The notes: a model not told the origin generated them from the letters alone. A stretch of DNA of 64,000 nt from Acidimicrobiales bacterium (GCA_020628865.1 JAHDEJ010000001.1:234395-298394); one strand, 5' to 3'. Shown: positions 32,627 to 50,090, counted from the first letter of the stretch. Numbers and translations: made by a program.

Positions 32627-35158
32627 TCAGTGAGAGATGGCGTCGAGGACGTTGAGCTTTCCTGCCCGCCGGGCCGGGAGGAACCCGGCGAGCAGGCCGG
32701 CGGCCGAGGCCACCAGGACCAGCACGCCGATCGACGTCCACGGAACCGCAAGGTTCGACAGGAACTCGTCCGGAGTGGCCGTGACCACGAGGATGCCGAA
32801 GACGATGCCGACGGCGGCCCCGAGCAGTGCACCGACACCGGAGACGATGGCGGCCTCCCAGCCCACCATGCGATGCATCTGGCTGCGAGTCATGCCGACG
32901 GCCCGCAGGAGTCCGAGCTCCCGAGTCCGTTCGAAGATCGACAGCGCCATCGTGTTCACGATGCCGATGAAGGCGATGAGGATGGCCAGACCGAGGAAGC
33001 CGCTCAGAACCTGGAGGAGGAAATCGACCTGGCCGCTGATGCTCTCGCGGTAGTCGCTGGCCGACTGCGCATCGAGCTGCGGGTAGGCCGACGAGAGGTC
33101 GGCGAAGAAGGCGTCGGCCTGCTCCGTGGTCGAGCCCTCGGCAATTGATGCGGCGACCCAGTCGTAGTTGACCTGTTCACCGATCGTGTCGTAGCGGCTC
33201 TCGGTGACGACGGCGCCCTCGAAGATGTTGCCGTCGCTGAAGATCGCAGCGAGTTCGAGGTCGACGATCGAGCCGTCGGCCAGTTCGACCGGGACGTTGT
33301 CGCCCAGCGACAGCCCCCGCTCGTCCACCAGCGTCTCCCGCAGGGCGAACGAGTTGTCGTCGACGTCCGTCCATGCACCGCCGACCAGACCGAGGTCGAG
33401 GACCTGATCGATCGAACCGAGCTCGAGCGTGCCGATCTCGGTGTCGATCCCGCCGATGGAGGTGCCCCAGTAGCGCATGCCCGCAACGTTCGTGAGATGC
33501 GGACTTGCCTCCATTTCGGACAACACCGCGACCGGAACCTCGCCGGACGGGGACGTGGCGAAGGCGGCGTAGTCCGCCTGAACCGTCGTCTCGAGCAGCT
33601 CGTTGAGGTCGGACTTCAACGTCTGGCCGACGACGAACGCCATCGAGACGAGCGAGAGCCCGATCATCAGCGCCGCCGCAGTCGTGGCGGTACGCCGAGG
33701 GTTGCGAGCGGCGTTCTCCTTCGCCAACACGCCGGGACGCCGGTAAATCTTGGCGATCGGCGCACCGAGTGTGCGGGAGATCGGCGCTGCGACCAGTGGG
33801 CTCAACAACGTGATCCCGATGAACAGCGTGGCGGCGCCGACGCCGAGGAGCCCCAGCATGAGGGCGGTGCTGTCGATCCCGCCGAACAGCGCAACACCGG
33901 TGGCGATCGCGCCGGCCAGCGACAGGACGCCGCCCAGGATGAGCGACCGGGTGTTCTCCCGAGGGTCGACCTGGTCGTGCCCGGAGATGGCGGTGATCGG
34001 TGCGGTGAGTCCGGCCTTGCGGGCGGGAACCCAGGCGGATGCCATCGTCACGCCGACACCGACGCCCATGCCGATCAGCGCGGTGGTGAGCGAAATCGGC
34101 TTGTCGAAGTCGGGGAGCTCGGCGCCGACGGCGGCAAGCATCGCTTCCATGCCGTAGGCGAGGCCGAGGCCGACGAGGATGCCGACAGCGGACGCCAGCA
34201 GACCGACGACGAACGCTTCACCGAGCACCGCCCGACGAACCTGCTTCGGTGTCGCACCGACCGCCCGGAGCAGCCCGAGCTCGCGAACCCGCTGGCTCAT
34301 GACGATGTTGAACGTGTTGGCAATGATGAAGATCGAGACGAACAGTGCCACGATCGCAAACGACCGCAGGACCCAGGCGAAGATGTCGATGAACGAGTTG
34401 AACTCTGCCCGCTGTTCTGCGTTCAGATCCGCCGTGTCGAGGGCCGCATACTCGGTTCCGAATTCGCGCTCGATGTCGGTGCGGACGTCGGCCACGGCTC
34501 GGGTTCCGTCGGTGGCGATCACGATGTTGTCGTAGACGCCGGGTTCGCCGAACAGATCCTGGGCGGCATCGATGTGCATCGCCATGAGGGTCGCGCCGTT
34601 GGTCGTGTTGTCGGCGCCGAACCGCAACGTGCCGACCAACTCGGCTTCGGTGATGCCTTCTTCCGTCGGCACGACCAGCTGGTAGGTGTCACCGACGACG
34701 AAGCCGTGTTCTTCGGCCGCCGTCATGTCGATGATCCATTCGCCGGGCGCTTCCGGCGCGCGGCCGGTTTCGATCGAGCTCGGGTTCAGCTGCGGATCGT
34801 CGATCCAGCTGAACATGAACTGGGGTGGCCCCTCGATCGAGATGGTTTCGCCGTCGGGCTTGATGGGCAGCACCGAGCTTTCCCACGCTTCGACGACCGG
34901 CTCGGCGATGCGAACGCCGTCGATGGCGTTGATGCGGTCGAGGTCGGCGGCGACGAGGTCGACGTCGTTGACGGCCGGGCGAACCTCAAGGTCCGTGCCT
35001 TGCACGATCTCGGCGCTGAGATCGCCGAAGCTGTCGCGCAGGCCTTCACTCAGGATGTTCGCGGCGCTGATGAAGCCGACTCCGAGCACGATGGCCAGAG
35101 CGGTGAGGGCGAGGCGGACCTTGTTGGCCGCAACGTTCTTGATGGTGATGTTCCACAT
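32627..35158 (-). CDS. ABC transporter permease, MacB/FtsX type with two FtsX domains
   Basis: N-terminus MWNITIKNVAANKVRLALTALAIVLGVGF and two RELGLLRAVG(A/M)T FtsX signature segments. Start at ATG 35158. Confidence 0.85.
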   Translation of the reverse strand: MWNITIKNVAANKVRLALTALAIVLGVGFISAANILSEGLRDSFGDLSAEIVQGTDLEVRPAVNDVDLVAADLDRINAIDGVRIAEPVVEAWESSVLPIKPDGETISIEGPPQFMFSWIDDPQLNPSSIETGRAPEAPGEWIIDMTAAEEHGFVVGDTYQLVVPTEEGITEAELVGTLRFGADNTTNGATLMAMHIDAAQDLFGEPGVYDNIVIATDGTRAVADVRTDIEREFGTEYAALDTADLNAEQRAEFNSFIDIFAWVLRSFAIVALFVSIFIIANTFNIVMSQRVRELGLLRAVGATPKQVRRAVLGEAFVVGLLASAVGILVGLGLAYGMEAMLAAVGAELPDFDKPISLTTALIGMGVGVGVTMASAWVPARKAGLTAPITAISGHDQVDPRENTRSLILGGVLSLAGAIATGVALFGGIDSTALMLGLLGVGAATLFIGITLLSPLVAAPISRTLGAPIAKIYRRPGVLAKENAARNPRRTATTAAALMIGLSLVSMAFVVGQTLKSDLNELLETTVQADYAAFATSPSGEVPVAVLSEMEASPHLTNVAGMRYWGTSIGGIDTEIGTLELGSIDQVLDLGLVGGAWTDVDDNSFALRETLVDERGLSLGDNVPVELADGSIVDLELAAIFSDGNIFEGAVVTESRYDTIGEQVNYDWVAASIAEGSTTEQADAFFADLSSAYPQLDAQSASDYRESISGQVDFLLQVLSGFLGLAILIAFIGIVNTMALSIFERTRELGLLRAVGMTRSQMHRMVGWEAAIVSGVGALLGAAVGIVFGILVVTATPDEFLSNLAVPWTSIGVLVLVASAAGLLAGFLPARRAGKLNVLDAISH

Positions 35159-35186
35159 GATGGGTCTCCCGTTCCCGTTCGTCTGC

Positions 35187-35942
35187 TCAGCGCTGCGTGG
35201 CGCGGCGGAGCGTGCTGAGGATGGTGTCGGTGTCCGGATCGTGGAGCTCGTCCAGGATCCGGCCGTCGGCCAGAAACAGGACCCGGTCGGCGTAGGCCGC
35301 AGCAACCGGATCGTGGGTGACCATGACGATGGTCTGGTCGTATTCGTTCACCGCACGACGCATGAACGAGAGGATCTCGGCGCCGGTGGTGGAGTCGAGG
35401 TTGCCGGTCGGTTCGTCGGCGAAGACGACCTCGGGCCGTGAAGCGAGTGCTCGAGCCACAGCGACGCGCTGCTGCTGGCCGCCCGAGAGCTCGTTCGGCT
35501 TGTGTTCGAGCCGATCGGCGAGTCCGACCGCCCGGATGACCTCGTCGAGCCAGGCTTCGTCGACGCCGAGTCGACCAAGGTCGAGGGGCAACGTGATGTT
35601 CTCGATCGTGGTGAGGGTGGGCACCAGGTTGAAGGCCTGGAAGACGAACCCGATCTTGGTGCGCCTCAGGAGCGTCAGCTCCTTTTCGTTCATCGTCGAT
35701 AGGTCGGTGTCGCCGATGACGACTCGACCCGACGTGAGCCGGTCGAGCCCGGCGAGGCTGTGCATGAGGGTGGACTTGCCCGAGCCCGACGGGCCCATGA
35801 TTGCCGTGAATTGGCCCTTGGTGAACGTGACGTCCACCTGATCGAGTGCCGTGACCTGCGTGTCACCGGATCCGTAGACCTTCGTTGCACCCTCGGTGCG
35901 AGCCGCCAATTCGGTGAGTACTGGTGTGTCGATGACTGCCAT
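35187..35942 (-). CDS. ABC transporter ATP-binding protein (MacB/LolD-like)
   Basis: Walker A GPSGSGKST, signature LSGGQQQRVAVARAL, Walker B VVFADEPTGNLD. Confidence 0.92.
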   Translation of the reverse strand: MAVIDTPVLTELAARTEGATKVYGSGDTQVTALDQVDVTFTKGQFTAIMGPSGSGKSTLMHSLAGLDRLTSGRVVIGDTDLSTMNEKELTLLRRTKIGFVFQAFNLVPTLTTIENITLPLDLGRLGVDEAWLDEVIRAVGLADRLEHKPNELSGGQQQRVAVARALASRPEVVFADEPTGNLDSTTGAEILSFMRRAVNEYDQTIVMVTHDPVAAAYADRVLFLADGRILDELHDPDTDTILSTLRRATQR

Positions 35943-36106
35943 CGTTCTTCTCCCGTGGTCCACGCCCGCCCCGTGCGAACGTGTCCTTTCACAGTGCAGA
36001 ACGAAGAACGATTCGTCGTCAGCCCCCGGGACGTTTGCCGGGGTCCTCCCCAGGGTGGAGGGCCCTCATCCCAACGTCAGGGTTCTCCCTGAGACGGGTT
36101 GAGGGG

Positions 36107-38586: not shown

Positions 38587-39813
38587 TCAGAGCGTGTCGT
38601 GTTCCATCTCGTCGTCGAACTCCTCGCAGAGCTCGTCGAGGAAGGCATCGAGTTCGGCGTCGGTGAATTCGACCGAATCGAAGTCCATCTCGTCGTCGAG
38701 CTCGTACCAGTCGGCATCCTCCGGATCGAACTCGTCGAGGTACGCATCCTCGTCGTCGAAGTCGTCGAAGTCTTCAGCCTCGAGTTCGGCGTCGAGCTCC
38801 GCCCAGTCGGCGTCCGTCCAGTCGGTGGTGTCGATCTCGACCCACTCGCCGTCGATGAACTCCTCGACGATGAAGTCATCGTCGTCAGCGAACTCGCCGT
38901 CGAACATGGCATCGTCCTCGAAATCGAAGTCGGCGGTGTCGCCATCGAAGTCGGGGGCGTCCTCGGTGTCGGCGGGATCGGTCGGTGCCGGAACGTTCGG
39001 GCTGGCCGTGGCCTCGCCGGTGTTCAGGAAGTCGATGTAGTTCGGCACCTCGGCGTAGACACCGGGGGTGTCACCACCGCACTCGTCGCCCCAGCTCACC
39101 ACGCCGGCGAGCTTCGGGCCGTCGGCCGTCTGCACGACGAGCGGGCCACCGCTGTCGCCGTAGCAGGAGTCGGTGCCCGTGCCGCCGGCGCAGACCTCGC
39201 CCGCGGCGTCGGTCCCGAGCTGGGCGTTGCAGGTCGCATCGTCGACGAGTGGAACGGTTGCGGAGAGCAGCTGGTTGGGCGAATCGGTGTCGGTTTCGCC
39301 GACGGCGCCCCAACCGGAGGTCACCGCGGTGTCGGCGGCCGCAATCTCGGCCCGGCTGGCCGGGGCGATCGGCTGCACCCGCTCGTTGAACGTGAGCGGT
39401 TCGGCCAGCTTGATCACGGCGATGTCGCCGACGCCGGTCGCCGCGTAGTCCGGGTGCGACGTGATGGAGGCGACTCGCACGTCCTGGCCACTCGAGTCGC
39501 TGGAGTCGGTGACCCCGGCCCGAACGGTCGTGCCGGCGGCGGTCTCACCTTCGACACAGTGGGCGGCGGTGACGATGGTGGTGGCGTCGAGGATCGAGCC
39601 TCCGCAGTAGTAGCCGGAACCGTCCTGCAGCGAGACCTGCCAGGGGGCGTCGGTTGCGCTGGCCGGAGTGCCGTTGACGATGGCGCCGGCGGAGCCGCCG
39701 CCGAGCAGCAGCGTGGCGCCCATGATCGAGGCGCCGAGACTTCCGGCGAGCACGCCGGCCAGAAGGCGGCGCTTCGGTGCGGGAGCGGGGGTTGGGTTGG
39801 GGGTGGTGTCCAT
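38587..39813 (-). CDS. Secreted trypsin-like S1 serine protease with hyper-acidic C-terminal tail
   Basis: IVNGTPA..., TAAHC (His), DSCYGDSGGPLV (Ser) and an N-terminal signal/TM region. The last ~127 aa are about half Asp/Glu. Confidence 0.85.
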   Translation of the reverse strand: MDTTPNPTPAPAPKRRLLAGVLAGSLGASIMGATLLLGGGSAGAIVNGTPASATDAPWQVSLQDGSGYYCGGSILDATTIVTAAHCVEGETAAGTTVRAGVTDSSDSSGQDVRVASITSHPDYAATGVGDIAVIKLAEPLTFNERVQPIAPASRAEIAAADTAVTSGWGAVGETDTDSPNQLLSATVPLVDDATCNAQLGTDAAGEVCAGGTGTDSCYGDSGGPLVVQTADGPKLAGVVSWGDECGGDTPGVYAEVPNYIDFLNTGEATASPNVPAPTDPADTEDAPDFDGDTADFDFEDDAMFDGEFADDDDFIVEEFIDGEWVEIDTTDWTDADWAELDAELEAEDFDDFDDEDAYLDEFDPEDADWYELDDEMDFDSVEFTDAELDAFLDELCEEFDDEMEHDTL

Positions 39814-40003: not shown

Positions 40004-42649
40004 ATGAATGCGGGTGCCGAGCAACAAGGAGGGACCGTGCCGTCCGGCACCGTGACCTTCTTCTTCTCCGACATCCAGGGCTCGACGAGACTGTGGGCGG
40101 CCGACGAAGCCGGCATGTCCGCCTCGACACAGCTCCATGAGCAGATCATTCGAGGAATCCTGGAACCTCGCGGCGGCTACGTCTTCAACACGGCGGGCGA
40201 CTCGTTTGCGGTGGCGTTCGAAAGCGCCGAACTTGCCGTCGACGCAGCCAAGACCATTCAGGACGCGCTGGCCTCGACGGAATGGCCGGGACCGTCGATC
40301 CGGGTTCGCATCGGCTTGCATCGGGGCCTGGCCGAGGTACGCGACGGCGACTACTTCGGCATCAACGTGAACACCGCCGCCCGCATCGAAGATGCCGGCC
40401 ACGGCGGACAGACCCTGGCCAGCCAAGCGGTCGTGCAGGCCGCAGGCATCGACGCCCAGGACATGGGCATCTACCAACTCCGGGACCTGGCCGAACCCGT
40501 CCACCTGTTCCAGCTCGGCGATGGCGACTTCCCGCCGCTGCGTGTCGCCGACCCCGAGCTTCACAACCTTCCGGCCCGGCCGACCTCGATCATCGGCCGG
40601 GACGTGGAAGTCGCGCATCTCCGCGGTCTGTTGTTGGAGGAACGGCTGGTCACGATGACCGCCCTCGGAGGCTGCGGCAAGACCCGACTCGCCGTGGCCG
40701 TGGGCGAAGCGGAACTCCGCCACCAACCCGATGGCGTCTGGTTCGTCGACTTCACCGCCATCGTCGACGGGGCCAACGTCCCGGCTGCGCTCGCCGAAGC
40801 CGCCGGCCTCAGCCTGGGCGGAGGCGACCCGACCGAGCAGGTCATCACCTACTTCGCCGGCAAGGAGTCGCTCCTCATCCTCGACAACTGCGAACACATC
40901 ATCGACGACGTCGCGGATTTCGTCGATGCCTGGCTGCAGGTCCCCGGACGATCGAGAATCCTCGCCACGAGCCGCGAACCACTCGACCTGGACGGCGAGC
41001 GGGTCATGATGCTCGAGTCGCTCCCGTTCGAGGGATCCGACTCCCCCGCCGTGCGCCTGTTCGCCGAGCGGGCCACGGCCATCCAACCGACCTTCATGGT
41101 GACCGACGCAAATCGAGCGGATGTCGAGGCGATCTGTCGGCATCTCGATGGGATTCCGCTGGCCGTCGAGTTGGCGGCGGTTCGCATGACGGCGATGACA
41201 CCCGCCGAGGTGCTGGCCGGGCTCGACGACCGCTTCACGCTCCTCGGTGGTGGGCGACGCCGCCGCCGAATGCGCACGCTGCGCGCCACACTCGATTGGA
41301 GCTACGACAACCTCGTCGAGGACGACCAACGGGTCTTTCGTTGTCTGGGCGCCTTCGTCGATGGTTTCGACCTGCCGGCCGTCGAGGCCGTCACCGCCCT
41401 TCCGGCCTTCCAGGCCCGCGACGCCCTCGACTCGCTCCAAAGCAAGTCCATGATCGTGCGGGCGCACGCAGGAGCGCACGCACGATTTCGCATGCTCGAG
41501 ACCGTCAAGGCCTACGCCGATGAACGACAGCAGGAGGAAGGTGGCGCAGCCGGCGACCGTGGGCGACACCTGACGCACTTTCATGAGCGGGCGACCCGAC
41601 ATGGCCGGGTCTGTCAGGGCCTGCTGAGTACCGGCAACGACCTTCGGCGGGACACCAGCAACCTGTCGACCGCATTCGACTGGGCCATGGACCAGGGCGA
41701 GCATGCCGCCGCCGGCGAGCTGTTGCTCGGCACCTCGATGGCGTTTTTCATGAGTACGCGTGTGCTGGAGTTCCGAACGATGCTCCTCGAGGCGGAGAAG
41801 CACGTCGGCCGCGACGACCCGGAACTCCACGACTACCTGACCGTCCAGCTGGTCTTCGGTTCGGGCAAGCTTCGTGACCTCGCGGGGGTCGAGCATCACG
41901 CCAACCTCCTGCTGGAGTCGGAGGATCCGGGGTTCCGGGCGGTCGGTCATGCGACACTCGCCAGCCTCGCCGTCCGCCGGTCGCCCGGCATGGGGGCGGC
42001 GCCAGACCTCTTCTCCCCCGCGTGGGACGAGCTCGACCATGGCGGCGGCGACCGCGACGGCAACATCGCAGAATTCGCGCCGGCCTACGTCGCAACGGCC
42101 GAACTGACGAGAAGCCTCATCGCCCTCGATCTGGCCGCGGCACTCGAGCGGGCGGACGAGGTGCTCTCTGCAGCCGTGGACCACGGGTCCCGAAGTTTCC
42201 TCCACGTCGGCGTTGCGAACTCGCAGGCGATGGCGCTCCTGCTGAGCGATCGACCGGCCGATGCCCTCGCTGCACTCGATTGGCTCGTCGACCACGACCT
42301 TCCCTACTACGACGGTGTCGAGGCACGAACCCTGATCCGTTTGGAACAAGGCGACATCGAGGCGGCCACGCCGGACCTTCGAGTGCAGTGCCAACGCGGG
42401 CTCAGCGGCCGCTTCGAAGGCGAGTGTTGCGACAGCGTGTTGCTGCTCGCCACGCTTGCGCACGCCGAAGGTGACGACGACCGGGCCCGAGCGTTACTGA
42501 CCTCGATGGGGCAGGGCCGACTGCCGGCCACGGTGGCATTCGCACGTCACCTCGGTGCACGGCTGGACGTCGCCCCGGCCCCAACAACCTCGGTCGACGA
42601 TGCCCTCGCCACGCTCCGTACCGAGATGAACCGCCGGGGCTGGTCATAG
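40004..42649 (+). CDS. Class III adenylate/guanylate cyclase domain fused to STAND (NB-ARC/AAA) ATPase and TPR-like C-terminal region; no HTH recognised
   Basis: Cyclase region VTFFFSDIQGSTRLW...FNTAGDSFAVAF...RIGLHRG...GINVNTAARIE. P-loop GGCGKTRLA, Walker B LLILDNCEH, then ~450 aa of helical repeat-like sequence. Confidence 0.8.
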   Translation: MNAGAEQQGGTVPSGTVTFFFSDIQGSTRLWAADEAGMSASTQLHEQIIRGILEPRGGYVFNTAGDSFAVAFESAELAVDAAKTIQDALASTEWPGPSIRVRIGLHRGLAEVRDGDYFGINVNTAARIEDAGHGGQTLASQAVVQAAGIDAQDMGIYQLRDLAEPVHLFQLGDGDFPPLRVADPELHNLPARPTSIIGRDVEVAHLRGLLLEERLVTMTALGGCGKTRLAVAVGEAELRHQPDGVWFVDFTAIVDGANVPAALAEAAGLSLGGGDPTEQVITYFAGKESLLILDNCEHIIDDVADFVDAWLQVPGRSRILATSREPLDLDGERVMMLESLPFEGSDSPAVRLFAERATAIQPTFMVTDANRADVEAICRHLDGIPLAVELAAVRMTAMTPAEVLAGLDDRFTLLGGGRRRRRMRTLRATLDWSYDNLVEDDQRVFRCLGAFVDGFDLPAVEAVTALPAFQARDALDSLQSKSMIVRAHAGAHARFRMLETVKAYADERQQEEGGAAGDRGRHLTHFHERATRHGRVCQGLLSTGNDLRRDTSNLSTAFDWAMDQGEHAAAGELLLGTSMAFFMSTRVLEFRTMLLEAEKHVGRDDPELHDYLTVQLVFGSGKLRDLAGVEHHANLLLESEDPGFRAVGHATLASLAVRRSPGMGAAPDLFSPAWDELDHGGGDRDGNIAEFAPAYVATAELTRSLIALDLAAALERADEVLSAAVDHGSRSFLHVGVANSQAMALLLSDRPADALAALDWLVDHDLPYYDGVEARTLIRLEQGDIEAATPDLRVQCQRGLSGRFEGECCDSVLLLATLAHAEGDDDRARALLTSMGQGRLPATVAFARHLGARLDVAPAPTTSVDDALATLRTEMNRRGWS

Positions 42650-42668: not shown

Positions 42669-42698
42669 TTGCTGGCACGATCGCACAGAATCTAGTGT
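42669..42698 (+). promoter_or_regulatory. Candidate sigma-70-type promoter for the precursor-YcaO-TfuA operon
   Basis: TTGCTG (42669-42674), an 18-nt spacer, then TAGTGT (42693-42698, TAnnnT), in a locally GC-poorer stretch ~80 nt upstream of the ATG. Pattern match only. Confidence 0.2.
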
Positions 42699-42778
42699 CA
42701 CGGCCGCGGCTGGCCGATGGTGGGCCGCCCGAGGCGCCCGACCCGTGGGGCCCGGCCCAAAGGTGGAGGTTCCAGGAC

Positions 42779-43024
42779 ATGCAAGAACAGTTTCGGTCGC
42801 TCGTCGACGCACTCGTGGGCGATGAGAAATTCCGCGAGGCCTTCATGAACGCTCCCGACCAGGAGACACGGATGTCCCTCGCCGCCGACAAGGGTCTCTC
42901 GATCCCGTCGTACGACGACATGTCTGCTGCCACCGAGGCCCTCGGCGATGACGGCGTGGTGCCCGACAACCTGATGAGCGCCGGCTTCTGGATGAGCGCC
43001 TTCTGGATGCCGAGCGAAGAGTAG
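42779..43024 (+). CDS. 81-aa putative RiPP precursor with Nif11-like leader and Cys-free core (..NLMSAGFWMSAFWMPSEE)
   Basis: RBS AGGTGGAGG lies 9 nt upstream of ATG 42779. MQEQFRSLVDALVGDEKFREAFMNAPDQETRMSLAADKGLSIPSYDDM follows the Nif11 N-terminal domain pattern. The gene lies 91 nt upstream of YcaO on the same strand. Confidence 0.6.
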   Translation: MQEQFRSLVDALVGDEKFREAFMNAPDQETRMSLAADKGLSIPSYDDMSAATEALGDDGVVPDNLMSAGFWMSAFWMPSEE

Positions 43025-43115
43025 GCCGCTGTTTCATCGGTCGTTCGGTTCGCCGAGCCCCACACCGGACCATCGTTCCGCCGGCCAGCCGCCGCGCGCT
43101 CACAGCGCCGAGGAG

Positions 43116-44228
43116 ATGTGGGATCGCATCGAACCCCATCTGGCTGACTTCGGCATCACCCGGGTCGCCCACCTGACGCACCTCGACCGCATCGGCATTC
43201 CCGTGCACATGGCGATGCGTCCGGCGGGCCGCGTGCTCTCGAGCGGAAGCGGCAAGGGCACGACCGAATTGGCCTCGCGTGTGAGCGCCTGCATGGAGGC
43301 GATCGAGCAGGTGTACTGGGAATCGGCGCGCCCGGCGGTGCGGTTGGAGACGCCGGAGGCCCTCACCCGCACTGGCGAGGCGTTCGTCGACCCTTCCGAG
43401 CTTCCGGTTCGACGGAACGCCATCGGCCACGAAGCCACTCCGTCGGCCTGGCTTCCGCTCCACGATCTGGTGACCGGTGACGCCGTGTGGGCACCGGCCG
43501 AGACCACCTGCGTCGCCACGGGCGATGGCCGCACCCGAGCGCATCGAAACATGTCCTCGTCCAACGGCCTGGCCAGCGGCTCCCGGGTGATCGACGCCGC
43601 CTTGTCGGGGGTCTACGAGGTGGTCGAGCGGGACGCGATCGCGCTCGCCGCAACGCTGGCGAGGCCGATGCAACCGCCGGCGGGCGATGTGGTCGATTCG
43701 CTTCTCGACCGGCTGCGGGCAGCAGACGTCGGGATCGAACTCGACGACCTCACGACCGACATCGGGCTGCCCACGGTGCGGGCGGTCATCGACGGTGGCG
43801 AGGTCGGCACGAACTTCGTGGGCTACGGCACCTCGTCCGATGGGGAGCACGCGGCCGTTCGGGCGATCACCGAGGCGGCGCAGAGTCGGTGCATCGTCAT
43901 CGCCGGCGCCCGAGACGACATCTTCGACCTGGAACGCCGGGCATCGAACCGGCTCGGCTCCACCCAGGCCCTTCGCTCGGACTCGCCCGGTCACCAACTC
44001 GCCGTCGGAGGCTCCACCGGCTCGACCGCCGGCGACCTCGACGAGGCGATCCGCCGGCTCCAGGCTGCGGGTCTCGATCGGATACTCATCCACCGGTACA
44101 CGACCGATGAGGACCCGGTGCAGGTCGTCCGGGTGGTCGTCCCCGGGCTCGAGGGCTATCCGGGCCCGCACACCGCTCCGGGCCGCCGGGCGCTTGCGCA
44201 CCGACATCGGGAGCCGCTCGATGTCTGA
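43116..44228 (+). CDS. YcaO-family ATP-dependent amide-activating enzyme (TfuA-associated type)
   Basis: GITRVAHLTHLDRIGIPV, SGSGKGTTELASRVSACMEAIE, SNGLASGSRVIDAALSGVYEVVERDA, TDIGLPTV, ITEAAQSRCIVIAGARDD, and VVPGLEGY. Confidence 0.88.
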   Translation: MWDRIEPHLADFGITRVAHLTHLDRIGIPVHMAMRPAGRVLSSGSGKGTTELASRVSACMEAIEQVYWESARPAVRLETPEALTRTGEAFVDPSELPVRRNAIGHEATPSAWLPLHDLVTGDAVWAPAETTCVATGDGRTRAHRNMSSSNGLASGSRVIDAALSGVYEVVERDAIALAATLARPMQPPAGDVVDSLLDRLRAADVGIELDDLTTDIGLPTVRAVIDGGEVGTNFVGYGTSSDGEHAAVRAITEAAQSRCIVIAGARDDIFDLERRASNRLGSTQALRSDSPGHQLAVGGSTGSTAGDLDEAIRRLQAAGLDRILIHRYTTDEDPVQVVRVVVPGLEGYPGPHTAPGRRALAHRHREPLDV

Positions 44229-45657
44229 TGCACCCGTGCGCGGCATCGTCTTTGTCGGCCCCTCGCTCCCGGTCGAGACGATTCGAGAGATGGATCCCTC
44301 GCTCCTGGTGCTTCCGCCGGCGGCGATGGGCGACCTCCTGTCCGCCGTTCGGCATCACCAGCCGAACGCGGTGGCCCTGATCGACGGGACGTTCAAGCAG
44401 AACCTGTCCGTGTTCCACAAGGAGATCCTCTGGGCGATGGCGGAGGGGGTCTGGGTTCTCGGAGCCAGCAGCATGGGGGCGTTGCGTGCGGCCGAACTTC
44501 ATGACCTCGGCATGATCGGCGTCGGCCGGATCTTCGAGGAGTACGCGAGCGGCTGTCTGGTCGACGACGACGAGGTGGCGCTGGCCCACGCCGATGCCGA
44601 GTTCGGGCATCAGGCGGTCAGCACGCCGATGGTGAACATTCGGGCCACGCTCGACCACGCAGTCGAACAGGCCATCCTCTCGCAGGCGCAAGCCGACGCA
44701 CTCGTGGGTGCGCAGAAACAGCGCCACTTCCCCACTCGGAATCTCCGCACCCTCCTCGACGACGCAGCCGCGTTGGACCTCGGCCTCGACGAGGCCAGCA
44801 GCTCGGCGCTGCAAACGCTCATCGACGGTGGCGGCATCGATCTGAAACGGCAGGACGCAATCGCTGCAGTCGAGCAGTTGAGCATCCGCGCCGTGTCCCC
44901 CATGCCTCCCGACCGTCGCCCCGCCCATCCGGTGGCGGCAACGTTCCAGGGCACGTTGGAACGTGACGTGACCGTCGGGCTCGACGCCGACCTGCCGGTG
45001 ACGTTCGATTCGATCCGCAGACACAGCGCATTGAACGACACCCACTTCGAGCGCACATGGCGCACCGCGGTCACGACCTCCACACTCCACCGGCTAGCCG
45101 AAGTGCTCGGGGTCGTCCCCTCCGAGCAGGACCACGAACACGCCCGCACGGCGGTGCTCGCCCGCCTGACCGCACCCGACAACGGCGACTCGGCTGCGAC
45201 GCTTCGCCGACTCGACATGAGCGACCGAGACCTCGAGCGCATCGTCGGCGACGAAGCCATCGCACTGCGATTCCAACGCTGGCTGGCCGCCCAGGCGGGC
45301 TACACCCGAACCACCCAGGCGTTCATCGATCAGCTGCGACTCGACGGTCGCTACGAGGAGGCCCGGACCGAGGCCGGACTGTTCGAACAGGCGGCATCCG
45401 ATGCCGAGGGCGCAACCACCCAACCCAGCCTGGACCGGGCCATTGCCCTCCACTCGGCGCTCACCGGTTGGGAACCGCCGAGCGACCTCGATCGATACAT
45501 CGAGGATCACCAGCTCGGCAGTCGAGCCGAGCTCTACGACCGGCTGATGGTCAGCCTGCTGGCCGTGCAGAAACTGACCGGGCTTCCCGTGCCCATGGTC
45601 AGCGAATCCCCGTCGGTGGAAAGCGGGCCGATCGCCACTCGGGGCCATCAGGGCTGA
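44221..45657 (+). CDS. TfuA-domain protein with ~270-aa C-terminal extension
   Basis: VFVGPSL, LPPAAMGDLL, LIDGTFKQNLSVFHKEILWAM, VLGASSMGALRAAEL, GMIGVGRIF, DDDEVALAH, and VNIRATL. ATG 44221 overlaps the YcaO stop by 8 nt. Confidence 0.85.
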   Translation: MSDAPVRGIVFVGPSLPVETIREMDPSLLVLPPAAMGDLLSAVRHHQPNAVALIDGTFKQNLSVFHKEILWAMAEGVWVLGASSMGALRAAELHDLGMIGVGRIFEEYASGCLVDDDEVALAHADAEFGHQAVSTPMVNIRATLDHAVEQAILSQAQADALVGAQKQRHFPTRNLRTLLDDAAALDLGLDEASSSALQTLIDGGGIDLKRQDAIAAVEQLSIRAVSPMPPDRRPAHPVAATFQGTLERDVTVGLDADLPVTFDSIRRHSALNDTHFERTWRTAVTTSTLHRLAEVLGVVPSEQDHEHARTAVLARLTAPDNGDSAATLRRLDMSDRDLERIVGDEAIALRFQRWLAAQAGYTRTTQAFIDQLRLDGRYEEARTEAGLFEQAASDAEGATTQPSLDRAIALHSALTGWEPPSDLDRYIEDHQLGSRAELYDRLMVSLLAVQKLTGLPVPMVSESPSVESGPIATRGHQG

Positions 45658-49301: not shown

Positions 49302-50090
49302 TCAGAGCGCCTGGTTCAGGTTCCCGCTGCGGAAGCCTTCGAGGTCGAGCGTCACGTACCGGTAGCCGGCCTGCTTGACGGCGGCGATCACGTCGTCCCG
49401 GCGGCGGACGACCCGTTCGAGCGCATCGACCGGGACTTCGATGCGGGCGATCTCTTCGTAGTGGCGGACCCGGATCTCGGGGAAGCCCATCTGCTTGAGG
49501 GCGAACTCTGCGCCTTCGACGCTCTTGAGGCGAGTCAGCGTGACGGTGGTGCCGTACGGAATTCGGCTCGCCAGACACGCGGCCGCCGGCTTGTCCCACG
49601 TTTGCAGCCCGAGTTCCTTCGATGCCGCCCGGACGTCGTCCTTGCGCAGGCCGGCGTCGACCATCGGGAACCGGGCACCGCGCTGCGCCGCTGCGGTCTG
49701 ACCCGGACGGTGGTCCCCCAGATCATCGACGTTCACCCCGAGCACCACGGTTGCGCCGAGCTCATCGGCGATCGGCTGCACCGAGTCCATCAGCGCGTCC
49801 TTGCAGTGGAAGCAGCGATTGCCGTCGTTGACCCGATAGGCGGCGTTCTCCATCTCCGACGTCTCGACCTGACGCCAATCGAGGCCCCAGTCTGCGGCCA
49901 ACGACGCACACTCGTCGTGCTCTGCGCCGGCGAGTGATGGCGACACGGCCGTCACCGCCACCGCGTTGCTGGCGCCAAGGGTGTCTTTGGCCACCCACGC
50001 AAGGAGGGAGGAATCTGCGCCGCCGCTGAAGGCCACCACGACCCGTTCGAGCGAACGAAGCTCATGGCGGAGGCTGTCGAGTGTTTGCAC
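49302..50090 (-). CDS. PP-loop ATP pyrophosphatase of the LarE / TIGR00268 family (possible sulfur transferase)
   Basis: PP-loop VAFSGGADSS, CFHCK, and PAAACLASRIPYG (the LarE-type Cys motif). Confidence 0.7.
   Translation of the reverse strand: MQTLDSLRHELRSLERVVVAFSGGADSSLLAWVAKDTLGASNAVAVTAVSPSLAGAEHDECASLAADWGLDWRQVETSEMENAAYRVNDGNRCFHCKDALMDSVQPIADELGATVVLGVNVDDLGDHRPGQTAAAQRGARFPMVDAGLRKDDVRAASKELGLQTWDKPAAACLASRIPYGTTVTLTRLKSVEGAEFALKQMGFPEIRVRHYEEIARIEVPVDALERVVRRRDDVIAAVKQAGYRYVTLDLEGFRSGNLNQAL

Follow-up and report, generated by a model that had tools for sequence, protein, structure and literature searches.

Few thioamidated RiPPs have been characterised as compounds, and genome mining predicts hundreds of families. 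YcaO-TfuA pairs are known to thioamidate McrA (PMC5589413), and TfuA acts as a hydrolase of ThiS-type thiocarboxylates, delivering sulfide (PMC13063428). For thiovarsolin B, a precursor, a YcaO and a TfuA alone suffice (PMC6511847). By genome mining, Malit et al. (2021) catalogued TfuA-related clusters of cyanobacteria and proteobacteria whose precursors are Nif11-like, and their tables also contain many Acidimicrobiia genomes with TfuA-related clusters (PMC8120280); none of the Nif11-like TfuA clusters is known to have a characterised product. From the Acidimicrobiales themselves, almost no natural products have been characterised.

Here we describe a locus in the window, by which we mean the whole 64,000-nucleotide stretch of Acidimicrobiales DNA that was analysed. 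It appears to be a compact RiPP operon that runs from a precursor to a YcaO to a TfuA, with the gene of a candidate cyclase-STAND regulator just 5'. We put at roughly 70% the probability that its 81-aa ORF encodes the precursor of a peptide thioamidated by the YcaO-TfuA pair. The three genes cover about 2.9 kb and thus make a very small, portable test case; given that the tail of the peptide holds two near-identical units, the site selection of a YcaO-TfuA pair should be cleanly mappable by altering one of them.

The probable precursor ORF and its Nif11-like leader

The precursor ORF occupies positions 42779-43024 on the plus strand and translates to MQEQFRSLVDALVGDEKFREAFMNAPDQETRMSLAADKGLSIPSYDDMSAATEALGDDGVVPDNLMSAGFWMSAFWMPSEE. 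It looks like a genuine gene: its GC content by codon position (0.62/0.41/0.84) is as in the adjoining genes, and a Shine-Dalgarno-like AGGTGGAGG can be read at 42761-42769 (+), 9 nt 5' of the ATG. The letters GGTGGAGG are preserved in the window and in the related loci L001 and L047, and L003, the most distant relative that was aligned, has CTTGAGGA instead. Farther 5', the DNA of the aligned relatives is divergent and contains indels. Given that the letters of the ribosome site are kept and the DNA upstream of them is not, the start is likely to be the ATG at 42779, in preference to the upstream GTG at 42695. Around the operon, neither a sigma-70 consensus nor an intrinsic-terminator consensus was seen; no Rfam family matched in the window, and no second precursor was found within its 64 kb.

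Residues 1-59 (42779-42955, +) make up a Nif11-like leader that ends in LGDDG. Its matches to the Nif11 models remain below threshold, both for Pfam Nif11 (PF07862; E 9e-4, 19.9 bits against a cut-off of 23.8) and for TIGR03798 (E 1e-4, 22.2 bits against a cut-off of 32.3). The same holds for all eight relatives that were scanned, in which TIGR03798 is the top or a near-top match (E 2e-3 to 2e-6) and always falls short of its cut-off. Apart from the score, the peptide departs from Nif11-type precursors in having no GG/GA/GS motif and no C39 transporter nearby, and it agrees with them in its conserved N-terminal leader, its hypervariable C-terminal core and its adjoining maturase. We regard the leader as a divergent branch of Nif11, not as a formal member of the family.

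In a joint alignment, LGDDG(-VV) of the window falls on the LADV[AS]G[AG]G leader end of related precursors. Because of this correspondence, we take LGDDG to be a homologous, decayed double-glycine junction; the double glycine has been lost here in step with the missing C39 transporter. LGDDG had been named, beside DN, among the nearest candidates for a cleavage site in the first-pass annotation, and this choice is right by homology. The translation also agrees with the C-terminal residues quoted there for 42935-43024, which are residues E53-E81 and the stop codon of the ORF, and with its observation that the peptide has no Cys and no canonical GG site; a GG dipeptide occurs nowhere in the 81 residues.

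Relatives and the duplicated tail

The exact 81-aa peptide is present on at least 10 metagenome contigs, and a precursor 96% identical to it, in the same gene order, is found in an uncultured Acidimicrobiales MAG (L001). Outside of these, an exhaustive HMMER search with the peptide gave only 4 matches, a leader-pattern scan of JGI metagenomes gave no members of the sub-family, and a scan of genome contigs for the sub-family gave one near-identical MAG only. As a result of these sparse returns, the sub-family rests on only five distinct peptides. A YcaO-based search gave about 40 aquatic-metagenome loci, with YcaO proteins 36-52% identical to that of the window. These loci of the wider family have 1-3 Nif11-like small ORFs 5' of the YcaO gene, whose leaders end in L[AS]DV[AS]G[AG]G ahead of cores rich in Thr, Ala, Val and Pro, and 3' of it a TfuA of 450-480 aa that shares its C-terminal domain with the TfuA of the window.

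Where the flanks are readable, the order Nif11-like ORF, YcaO, long TfuA is found in about 30 metagenome loci and in L004-L007. Four loci (L006, L026, L027 and L029) hold two or three tandem precursor paralogues with different cores. On the short contigs of two distant sub-family peptides, P0004 (L002) and P0003, a homologous gene lies directly 3' of the precursor, and for P0004 this gene is a YcaO. Some loci of the wider family also hold genes for a sulfotransferase, for two unknown proteins and for an ABC transporter with a C39 peptidase; the C39 transporter is present in L005, L054 and L055. In the latter two (L054, 2434-12887; L055, 2647-12820), a YcaO 45-46% identical to that of the window and a long TfuA belong to larger clusters, together with a DUF4135 (LanM-N-like) protein, a sulfotransferase, two unknown proteins and two ABC transporters, one of them of the C39 type. 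No Nif11-like ORF was found within 7 kb in either cluster, so a visible Nif11 leader does not strictly accompany the long TfuA. The producers seem to be Acidimicrobiales that are uncultured and of marine or aquatic origin.

The C-terminus of the window peptide reads AGFWMS-AFWMP-SEE. It is preceded by residues 60-67 (VVPDNLMS; 42956-42979, +), which are a linker or the start of the core; N64H and S67T in this segment are among the few differences between near-identical relatives, and P62 is its sole invariant residue across the sub-family. The core at 42980-43024 (+) consists of A68, repeat 1 (GFWMS, 42983-42997), repeat 2 (AFWMP, 42998-43012), the tail SEE (43013-43021) and the stop codon (43022-43024); the motif G-FWMS-A-FWMP-S thus covers residues 69-79 (42983-43015).

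An exact 3-mer repeat at any offset up to 8 occurs somewhere in the peptide in about 10% of composition shuffles, and by this whole-peptide test alone the FWM repeat is unremarkable. Restricted to offset 5 and to the last 16 residues, a 3-mer repeat turns up in about 0.2-0.3% of shuffles, in a test that was defined post hoc. The relatives weigh more heavily. P0006, from a Tara Oceans contig, is 63-64% identical over the peptide and ends in SS-AFWMS-AFWVS-GD. P0004, only 29-36% identical, ends in N-MIVH-A-MIVW-GALD, which is a period-5 duplication in the same place with other residues; its offset-5 repeat has a shuffle frequency of 0.003, which serves as a semi-independent test. P0003 (43-45% identical) ends in GSEFAGGFYQWL and lacks the repeat. 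Hence, a period-5 tandem motif is found in three lineages, as FWMS/FWMP, AFWMS/AFWVS and MIVH/AMIVW, the last of them independent.

Among close relatives, the core is the part of the gene that changes least. Between the window and L047, whose peptides are 80% identical, 1 of 14 core codons differs, synonymously, as against 31 of 59 leader codons; this comparison is ungapped, and L003 was left out of it since an indel makes it invalid past residue 56. The core is unchanged in the near-identical P0001, P0002, P0127-P0130 and L001, and in close homologues the C-terminus is the best-conserved part of the peptide. In distant relatives, on the other hand, the core is replaced and the leader retained. 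From these alignments, we judge that the core is constrained more strongly than the leader among close relatives, and that the duplicated Phe-Trp-Met tail is real and conserved. The duplicated FWM(S/P) motif reported earlier is thus upheld by P0006 and by the near-identical relatives.

The closest relatives of the double-glycine type have just one [small]-[A/I]-F-[small] unit at their end (AAFAA, GAFA, SIFA, GIFT or SAFG), and a similar unit is present twice in the window, as AGFW and SAFW. Such a doubling would fit a duplicated site of recognition or modification. No one site motif is common to the sub-family, given that P0003 has no repeat and the repeat of P0004 has no Phe. Tandem units (AVPA-AVPA or PAAV-PAAV) are also seen in the Ala/Pro/Val-rich tails of many cores in the wider family, such as those of L036/L037 (3528-3782), L018 (138-404), L033, L034 and L038; these may be low-complexity noise, or they may reflect the same tendency to duplicate a site.

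Companion genes and the chemistry they point to

The YcaO gene, taken from its first ATG, lies at 43116-44228 (+) and encodes 370 aa, with a full-length match to Pfam YcaO (PF02624; E 1e-58) and no other Pfam domain. Its best NCBIfam model is the YcaO of McrA-glycine thioamidation (187 bits), against 103 bits for TOMM SagD, whose cut-off is 219. Likewise, its best solved relatives are the thioamide-forming archaeal MJ1094 (E 7e-21) and 6CI7 (E 1e-13), whereas the azoline-forming MusD, LynD and TruD reach only about 1e-6 to 1e-7. The segments MEAIE, E(V/I)(V/I)ERD and AQSR align with MJ1094 and are invariant across the family alignment, and the ATP-binding motifs of the enzyme are, as judged by this alignment, intact.

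The YcaO gene may in fact begin farther upstream. An in-frame CTG at 43029, 5 nt past the precursor stop, is the conserved start of an extended frame (43029-43115, +), and the frame stays open through the spacer, and farther back into the 3' end of the precursor, in the window, L001, L047, L003, L048 and L050 despite in-frame indels. The spacer encodes a conserved (A/P)GQPPR-x7-W, which has its counterparts (GEAPR-x7-W, GQAPR-x7-W) in the N-terminal extension of longer YcaOs, and inside the conserved GQPPR-x7-W motif the third codon positions show synonymous changes. The GAGGAG that abuts the ATG at 43116 reads Glu-Glu in the extended frame. We conclude that the start of YcaO probably lies 5' of that ATG, which would be mis-set. 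An RNA structure in the spacer between precursor and YcaO was also considered and rejected, its fold being no better than that of shuffles (z = 0.48). The conservation of the spacer thus seems better explained by coding than by an RNA fold.

The TfuA gene (44221-45657, +) overlaps the YcaO stop (44228) by 8 nt. Its catalytic domain, residues 1-220 (44221-44880, +), matches Pfam TfuA (PF07812) at E 2e-45 and NCBIfam ThioGly_TfuA_rel (TfuA-related thioamidation protein) at E 2e-56, and the 217-aa TfuA of PDB 6XP8 aligns with residues 7-220 (E 3e-28). What sets a YcaO-TfuA thioamide system apart, insofar as it can be tested here, is found in the window: a full-length YcaO, adjoined and overlapped by a TfuA. 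The remainder of TfuA is a C-terminal extension of about 258-260 aa (44881-45657, +), predicted to be helical, which is absent from the 217-aa solved TfuA.

This extension is conserved throughout the family. TfuA aligns over query residues ~9-475 in about 30 related loci, and the extension ends in an invariant P-x3-[ST]-R-G. Pfam has no match to it, and single-sequence AlphaFold2 models have a pLDDT of 44 for full-length TfuA and 48 for the C-terminal domain. Its profile gives weak matches to the SurA N-domain (E 8e-4) and the trigger factor C-domain (E 8e-3) over one shared stretch, and hhalign of the extension against the SurA segment gives a probability of 67%. The SurA N-domain and the trigger factor C-domain are peptide-binding chaperone modules that are generally held to be structurally related. 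That the extension is a leader- or substrate-binding domain is accordingly a reasonable lead, and a conserved, TfuA-fused domain of about 260 aa may explain how thioamide-forming YcaOs that have no RRE bind leaders of the Nif11 type. In the literature searched, we found no description of such a fused domain for a YcaO-TfuA pair.

Just 5' of the precursor lies the regulator candidate (40004-42649, +; 881 aa), which has an adenylate/guanylate cyclase domain, followed by a STAND-type NTPase and a long C-terminal region. It matches Pfam Guanylate_cyc (E 8e-11) and the NCBIfam FxSxx_TPR N-terminal region (E 3e-11), Pfam finds no domain over its C-terminal 730 aa, and an identical protein carries a weak precomputed match to HTH_77. 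The tail at its C-terminus, TLRTEMNRRGWS, is also found at the end of the gene directly 5' of the precursor in L047, L003 and L002, with TLRxE[ML][NL]RR[GD]W as the pattern shared by all four. As the tail recurs in these loci, the regulator seems to be part of a conserved unit of the sub-family. Among the upstream genes called in L004, L007 and one JGI contig, no cyclase-STAND regulator is present, and it appears to be specific to the sub-family without the double glycine. Three features would set the sub-family apart: the decay of GG to LGDDG, the absence of the C39 transporter and the cyclase-STAND regulator conserved upstream. A lineage that lost the double-glycine export signal and gained such a regulator is undescribed in the literature searched.

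Farther upstream, on the opposite strand, are genes for a trypsin-family protease, a flavin reductase-domain protein and RadA. The protease (38587-39813, -; PF00089, E 1e-54) is secreted-looking, divergent from the regulator and a possible leader protease. Past RadA, 4 kb 5' of the regulator, a MacB-type ABC exporter pair (32627-35963, -) combines an FtsX permease that has a MacB periplasmic domain with an ATPase; it is the nearest candidate exporter and is untied to the operon. No C39 peptidase-domain ABC transporter was found among the genes scanned from 32.6 to 50.9 kb. Downstream and convergent are genes for a histidine kinase, a response regulator, a ProX-like binding protein and a LarE-family ATP-dependent sacrificial sulfur transferase. 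The LarE-family gene (49302-50090, -), whose match to TIGR00268 reaches 300 bits where the cut-off is 150, is located 3.6 kb 3' of TfuA, with the two-component system and the ProX-like protein in between, and a tie to the sulfur supply for the thioamide is speculative. No ThiS-like open frame of 60-140 aa ending in GG was found in the 64-kb window; a ThiS-like sulfur carrier may be encoded elsewhere.

If it behaves like the YcaO-TfuA pairs already characterised, the operon would work as follows. The Nif11-type leader, residues 1 to ~59, would present the peptide to the enzymes, the core being its C-terminal ~14-22 residues. The YcaO would activate a backbone amide oxygen at the expense of ATP, and TfuA would deliver a sulfide equivalent, which elsewhere comes from hydrolysis of a thiocarboxylated ThiS-type carrier; the outcome of their joint action would be a backbone thioamide. 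The simplest reading of the two [G/A]-F-W-M-[S/P] pentapeptide units is that they are two equivalent modification sites; that each of them receives one thioamide we hold only tentatively, at somewhat less than even odds. Given that LGDDG is decayed and no C39 protease-transporter belongs to the locus, the leader would be removed and the product exported by proteins encoded elsewhere, as for the thiovarsolins.

Earlier, either thioamides or Ser-derived oxazolines had been put forward for the two sites. The adjoining YcaO and TfuA speak for the former, which we favour, in view of the TfuA partner, of a YcaO that lies far nearer the thioamide-forming enzymes of archaea than the azoline-forming ones, of the absence of a cyclodehydratase partner and dehydrogenase, and of the repeat of P0004. 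A YcaO acting as a cyclodehydratase, with oxazolines at M-S and P-S, is an extremely unlikely reading. The YcaO superfamily does contain azoline-forming enzymes, the core does have Ser73 and Ser79, and there is the weaker match to TOMM SagD. However, the YcaO is bare, its flanking genes being TfuA and the regulator; no RRE partner was identified among the flanking genes, and no E1-like or Ocin-ThiF partner and no SagB-type dehydrogenase near the operon. The locus therefore lacks the partner gene of an azol(in)e system (TOMM, LAP or cyanobactin). Nor are the Ser positions conserved: the window itself has P78, P0004 has H or W, and the repeat segment of P0004, NMIVHAMIVWGALD, contains no Ser, Thr or Cys at all. 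Thioamidation requires no particular side chain. The small ORF could also be an ordinary Nif11-domain protein or accessory factor, with the YcaO-TfuA pair modifying some other protein, as in the cases of McrA and ribosomal uL16. YcaOs that modify proteins exist (PMC5589413; PMC13063428), the Nif11 HMM matches are sub-threshold, and 81 aa is long for a precursor; even so, we consider this very improbable. The first-pass annotation held that an unconserved C-terminus would point to such a protein, and distant homologues do share the N-terminus only, but the conclusion fails, as a homologous YcaO follows every homologue with readable downstream DNA. Moreover, the small ORF is always first in the operon, the leaders of relatives end in a double glycine and C39 transporters go with them, and between lineages, as between the tandem paralogues whose sole difference is the core, it is the C-terminus that is hypervariable and the N-terminus that is conserved. 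A leader that is conserved, a core constrained within lineages and replaced between them, tandem paralogues and a fixed place before YcaO-TfuA together form the signature of a RiPP precursor; the earlier description of the peptide as a RiPP-type precursor, Nif11-like in its leader and with its core at the C-terminus, is accordingly sustained.

Two further explanations accept a thioamide RiPP precursor and differ over the repeat. The duplication may be incidental, a tolerated slippage in a hydrophobic tail of which one or no repeat site is modified. Short repeats are common in shuffles, P0003 is without the repeat, and the low-complexity Ala/Pro/Val cores of the wider family readily yield repeats such as AVPAAVPA. 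We nonetheless think it unlikely, because relatives 63-64% identical overall strictly retain both copies, because P0004 has an independent period-5 duplication at the same position, and because no other part of the gene is as constrained as the core. Slightly less likely still is that the two units are separate copies of the core, trimmed by host peptidases to two short thioamide-protected peptides of about 3-5 residues. Minimal precursor/YcaO/TfuA sets that yield short thioamidated peptides are documented, with 1-5 repeats among homologues (PMC6511847). No dedicated protease adjoins the operon, and the number of units does vary: the window, P0006 and P0004 have two, P0003 has one or none, and relatives of the GG type have a single [A/I]-F. 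On the other hand, there are two units only, their flanks (S-A-G|FWMS|A|FWMP|SEE) are not conserved as cleavage sites, and the C39 transporters of related clusters imply the export of a longer, leader-cleaved peptide.

We thus retain the reading of the 81-aa ORF as the precursor of a thioamidated peptide with two candidate sites. As to its role, it is quite improbable, in our estimate, that the sub-family is a self-contained peptide signalling or metal-binding module and not an antibiotic. As a signal, the peptide, thioamidated twice and rich in Trp/Met (or in His/Met/Trp), would during its maturation be bound as a leader by a new chaperone-like domain of TfuA, similar to SurA-N and trigger factor, in the place of an RRE, and the matured peptide would be sensed by the upstream cyclase-STAND protein, with a cyclic nucleotide as the output. 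As a metal ligand, the set of Met, Trp, His and thioamide might bind Cu(I) in the manner of CusF or methanobactin. Of the observations made here, two speak for these ideas: the regulator is conserved together with the precursor, and the TfuA extension has its weak profile matches.

Comparison with known systems

The closest solved structures for both enzymes come from the archaeal YcaO-TfuA pair of the McrA thioglycine system (6PEU/6PE3, 6CI7 and 6XP8). Its chemistry, an ATP-dependent thioamidation assisted by TfuA, is the one proposed here. The substrate of that system is a folded enzyme subunit, whereas here it would be a small, leader-bearing peptide, and the archaeal TfuA, of about 210 aa, has no C-terminal domain, unlike the extended TfuA of the window. 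The thioamitides (thioviridamide, thioholgamide and thiostreptamide S4), which are also from Actinobacteria, have a YcaO-TfuA pair that is proposed to thioamidate a ribosomal peptide. They require Cys/Ser/Thr for AviMeCys and a large tailoring set; by contrast, the window core has no Cys, and no thioamitide dehydratase, decarboxylase or methyltransferase genes were found among its neighbours, so the locus lacks what marks a thioamitide cluster.

The clusters of Malit et al. resemble the locus in having a Nif11-like leader and an adjoining YcaO-TfuA pair; the window peptide differs in having no GG and the locus in having no transporter, and the peptide was not found in the part of the supplement that was searched (PMC8120280). 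The literature searched likewise describes neither this peptide, nor the long TfuA, nor a characterised product. The aquatic-metagenome loci L004-L046 share with the window a homologous leader, a YcaO (40-52% identity), a long TfuA and the order of these genes. Unlike the window, they keep the double glycine and often have the C39 transporter, the sulfotransferase and the two unknown genes, and their cores are aliphatic, whereas that of the window contains Phe-Trp-Met.

The thiovarsolins (VarA/VarY/VarT, Streptomyces varsoviensis) are likewise made from a minimal set of precursor, YcaO and TfuA, with imperfect repeated core units in the precursor and without a dedicated protease or transporter, as here, and both are from Actinobacteria (PMC6511847). 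The locus differs from them in its Nif11-like leader, its two units and the extra 260-aa domain of its TfuA, and its units are aromatic/Met pentapeptides whereas those of the thiovarsolins are APR; the likeness to VarA is one of architecture only. Taken together, these comparisons suggest that the locus most likely works like a minimal thiovarsolin-type thioamide cluster with a leader of the Nif11 type, and is a variant, so far uncharacterised, of a type of system that is already known, and not a new type.
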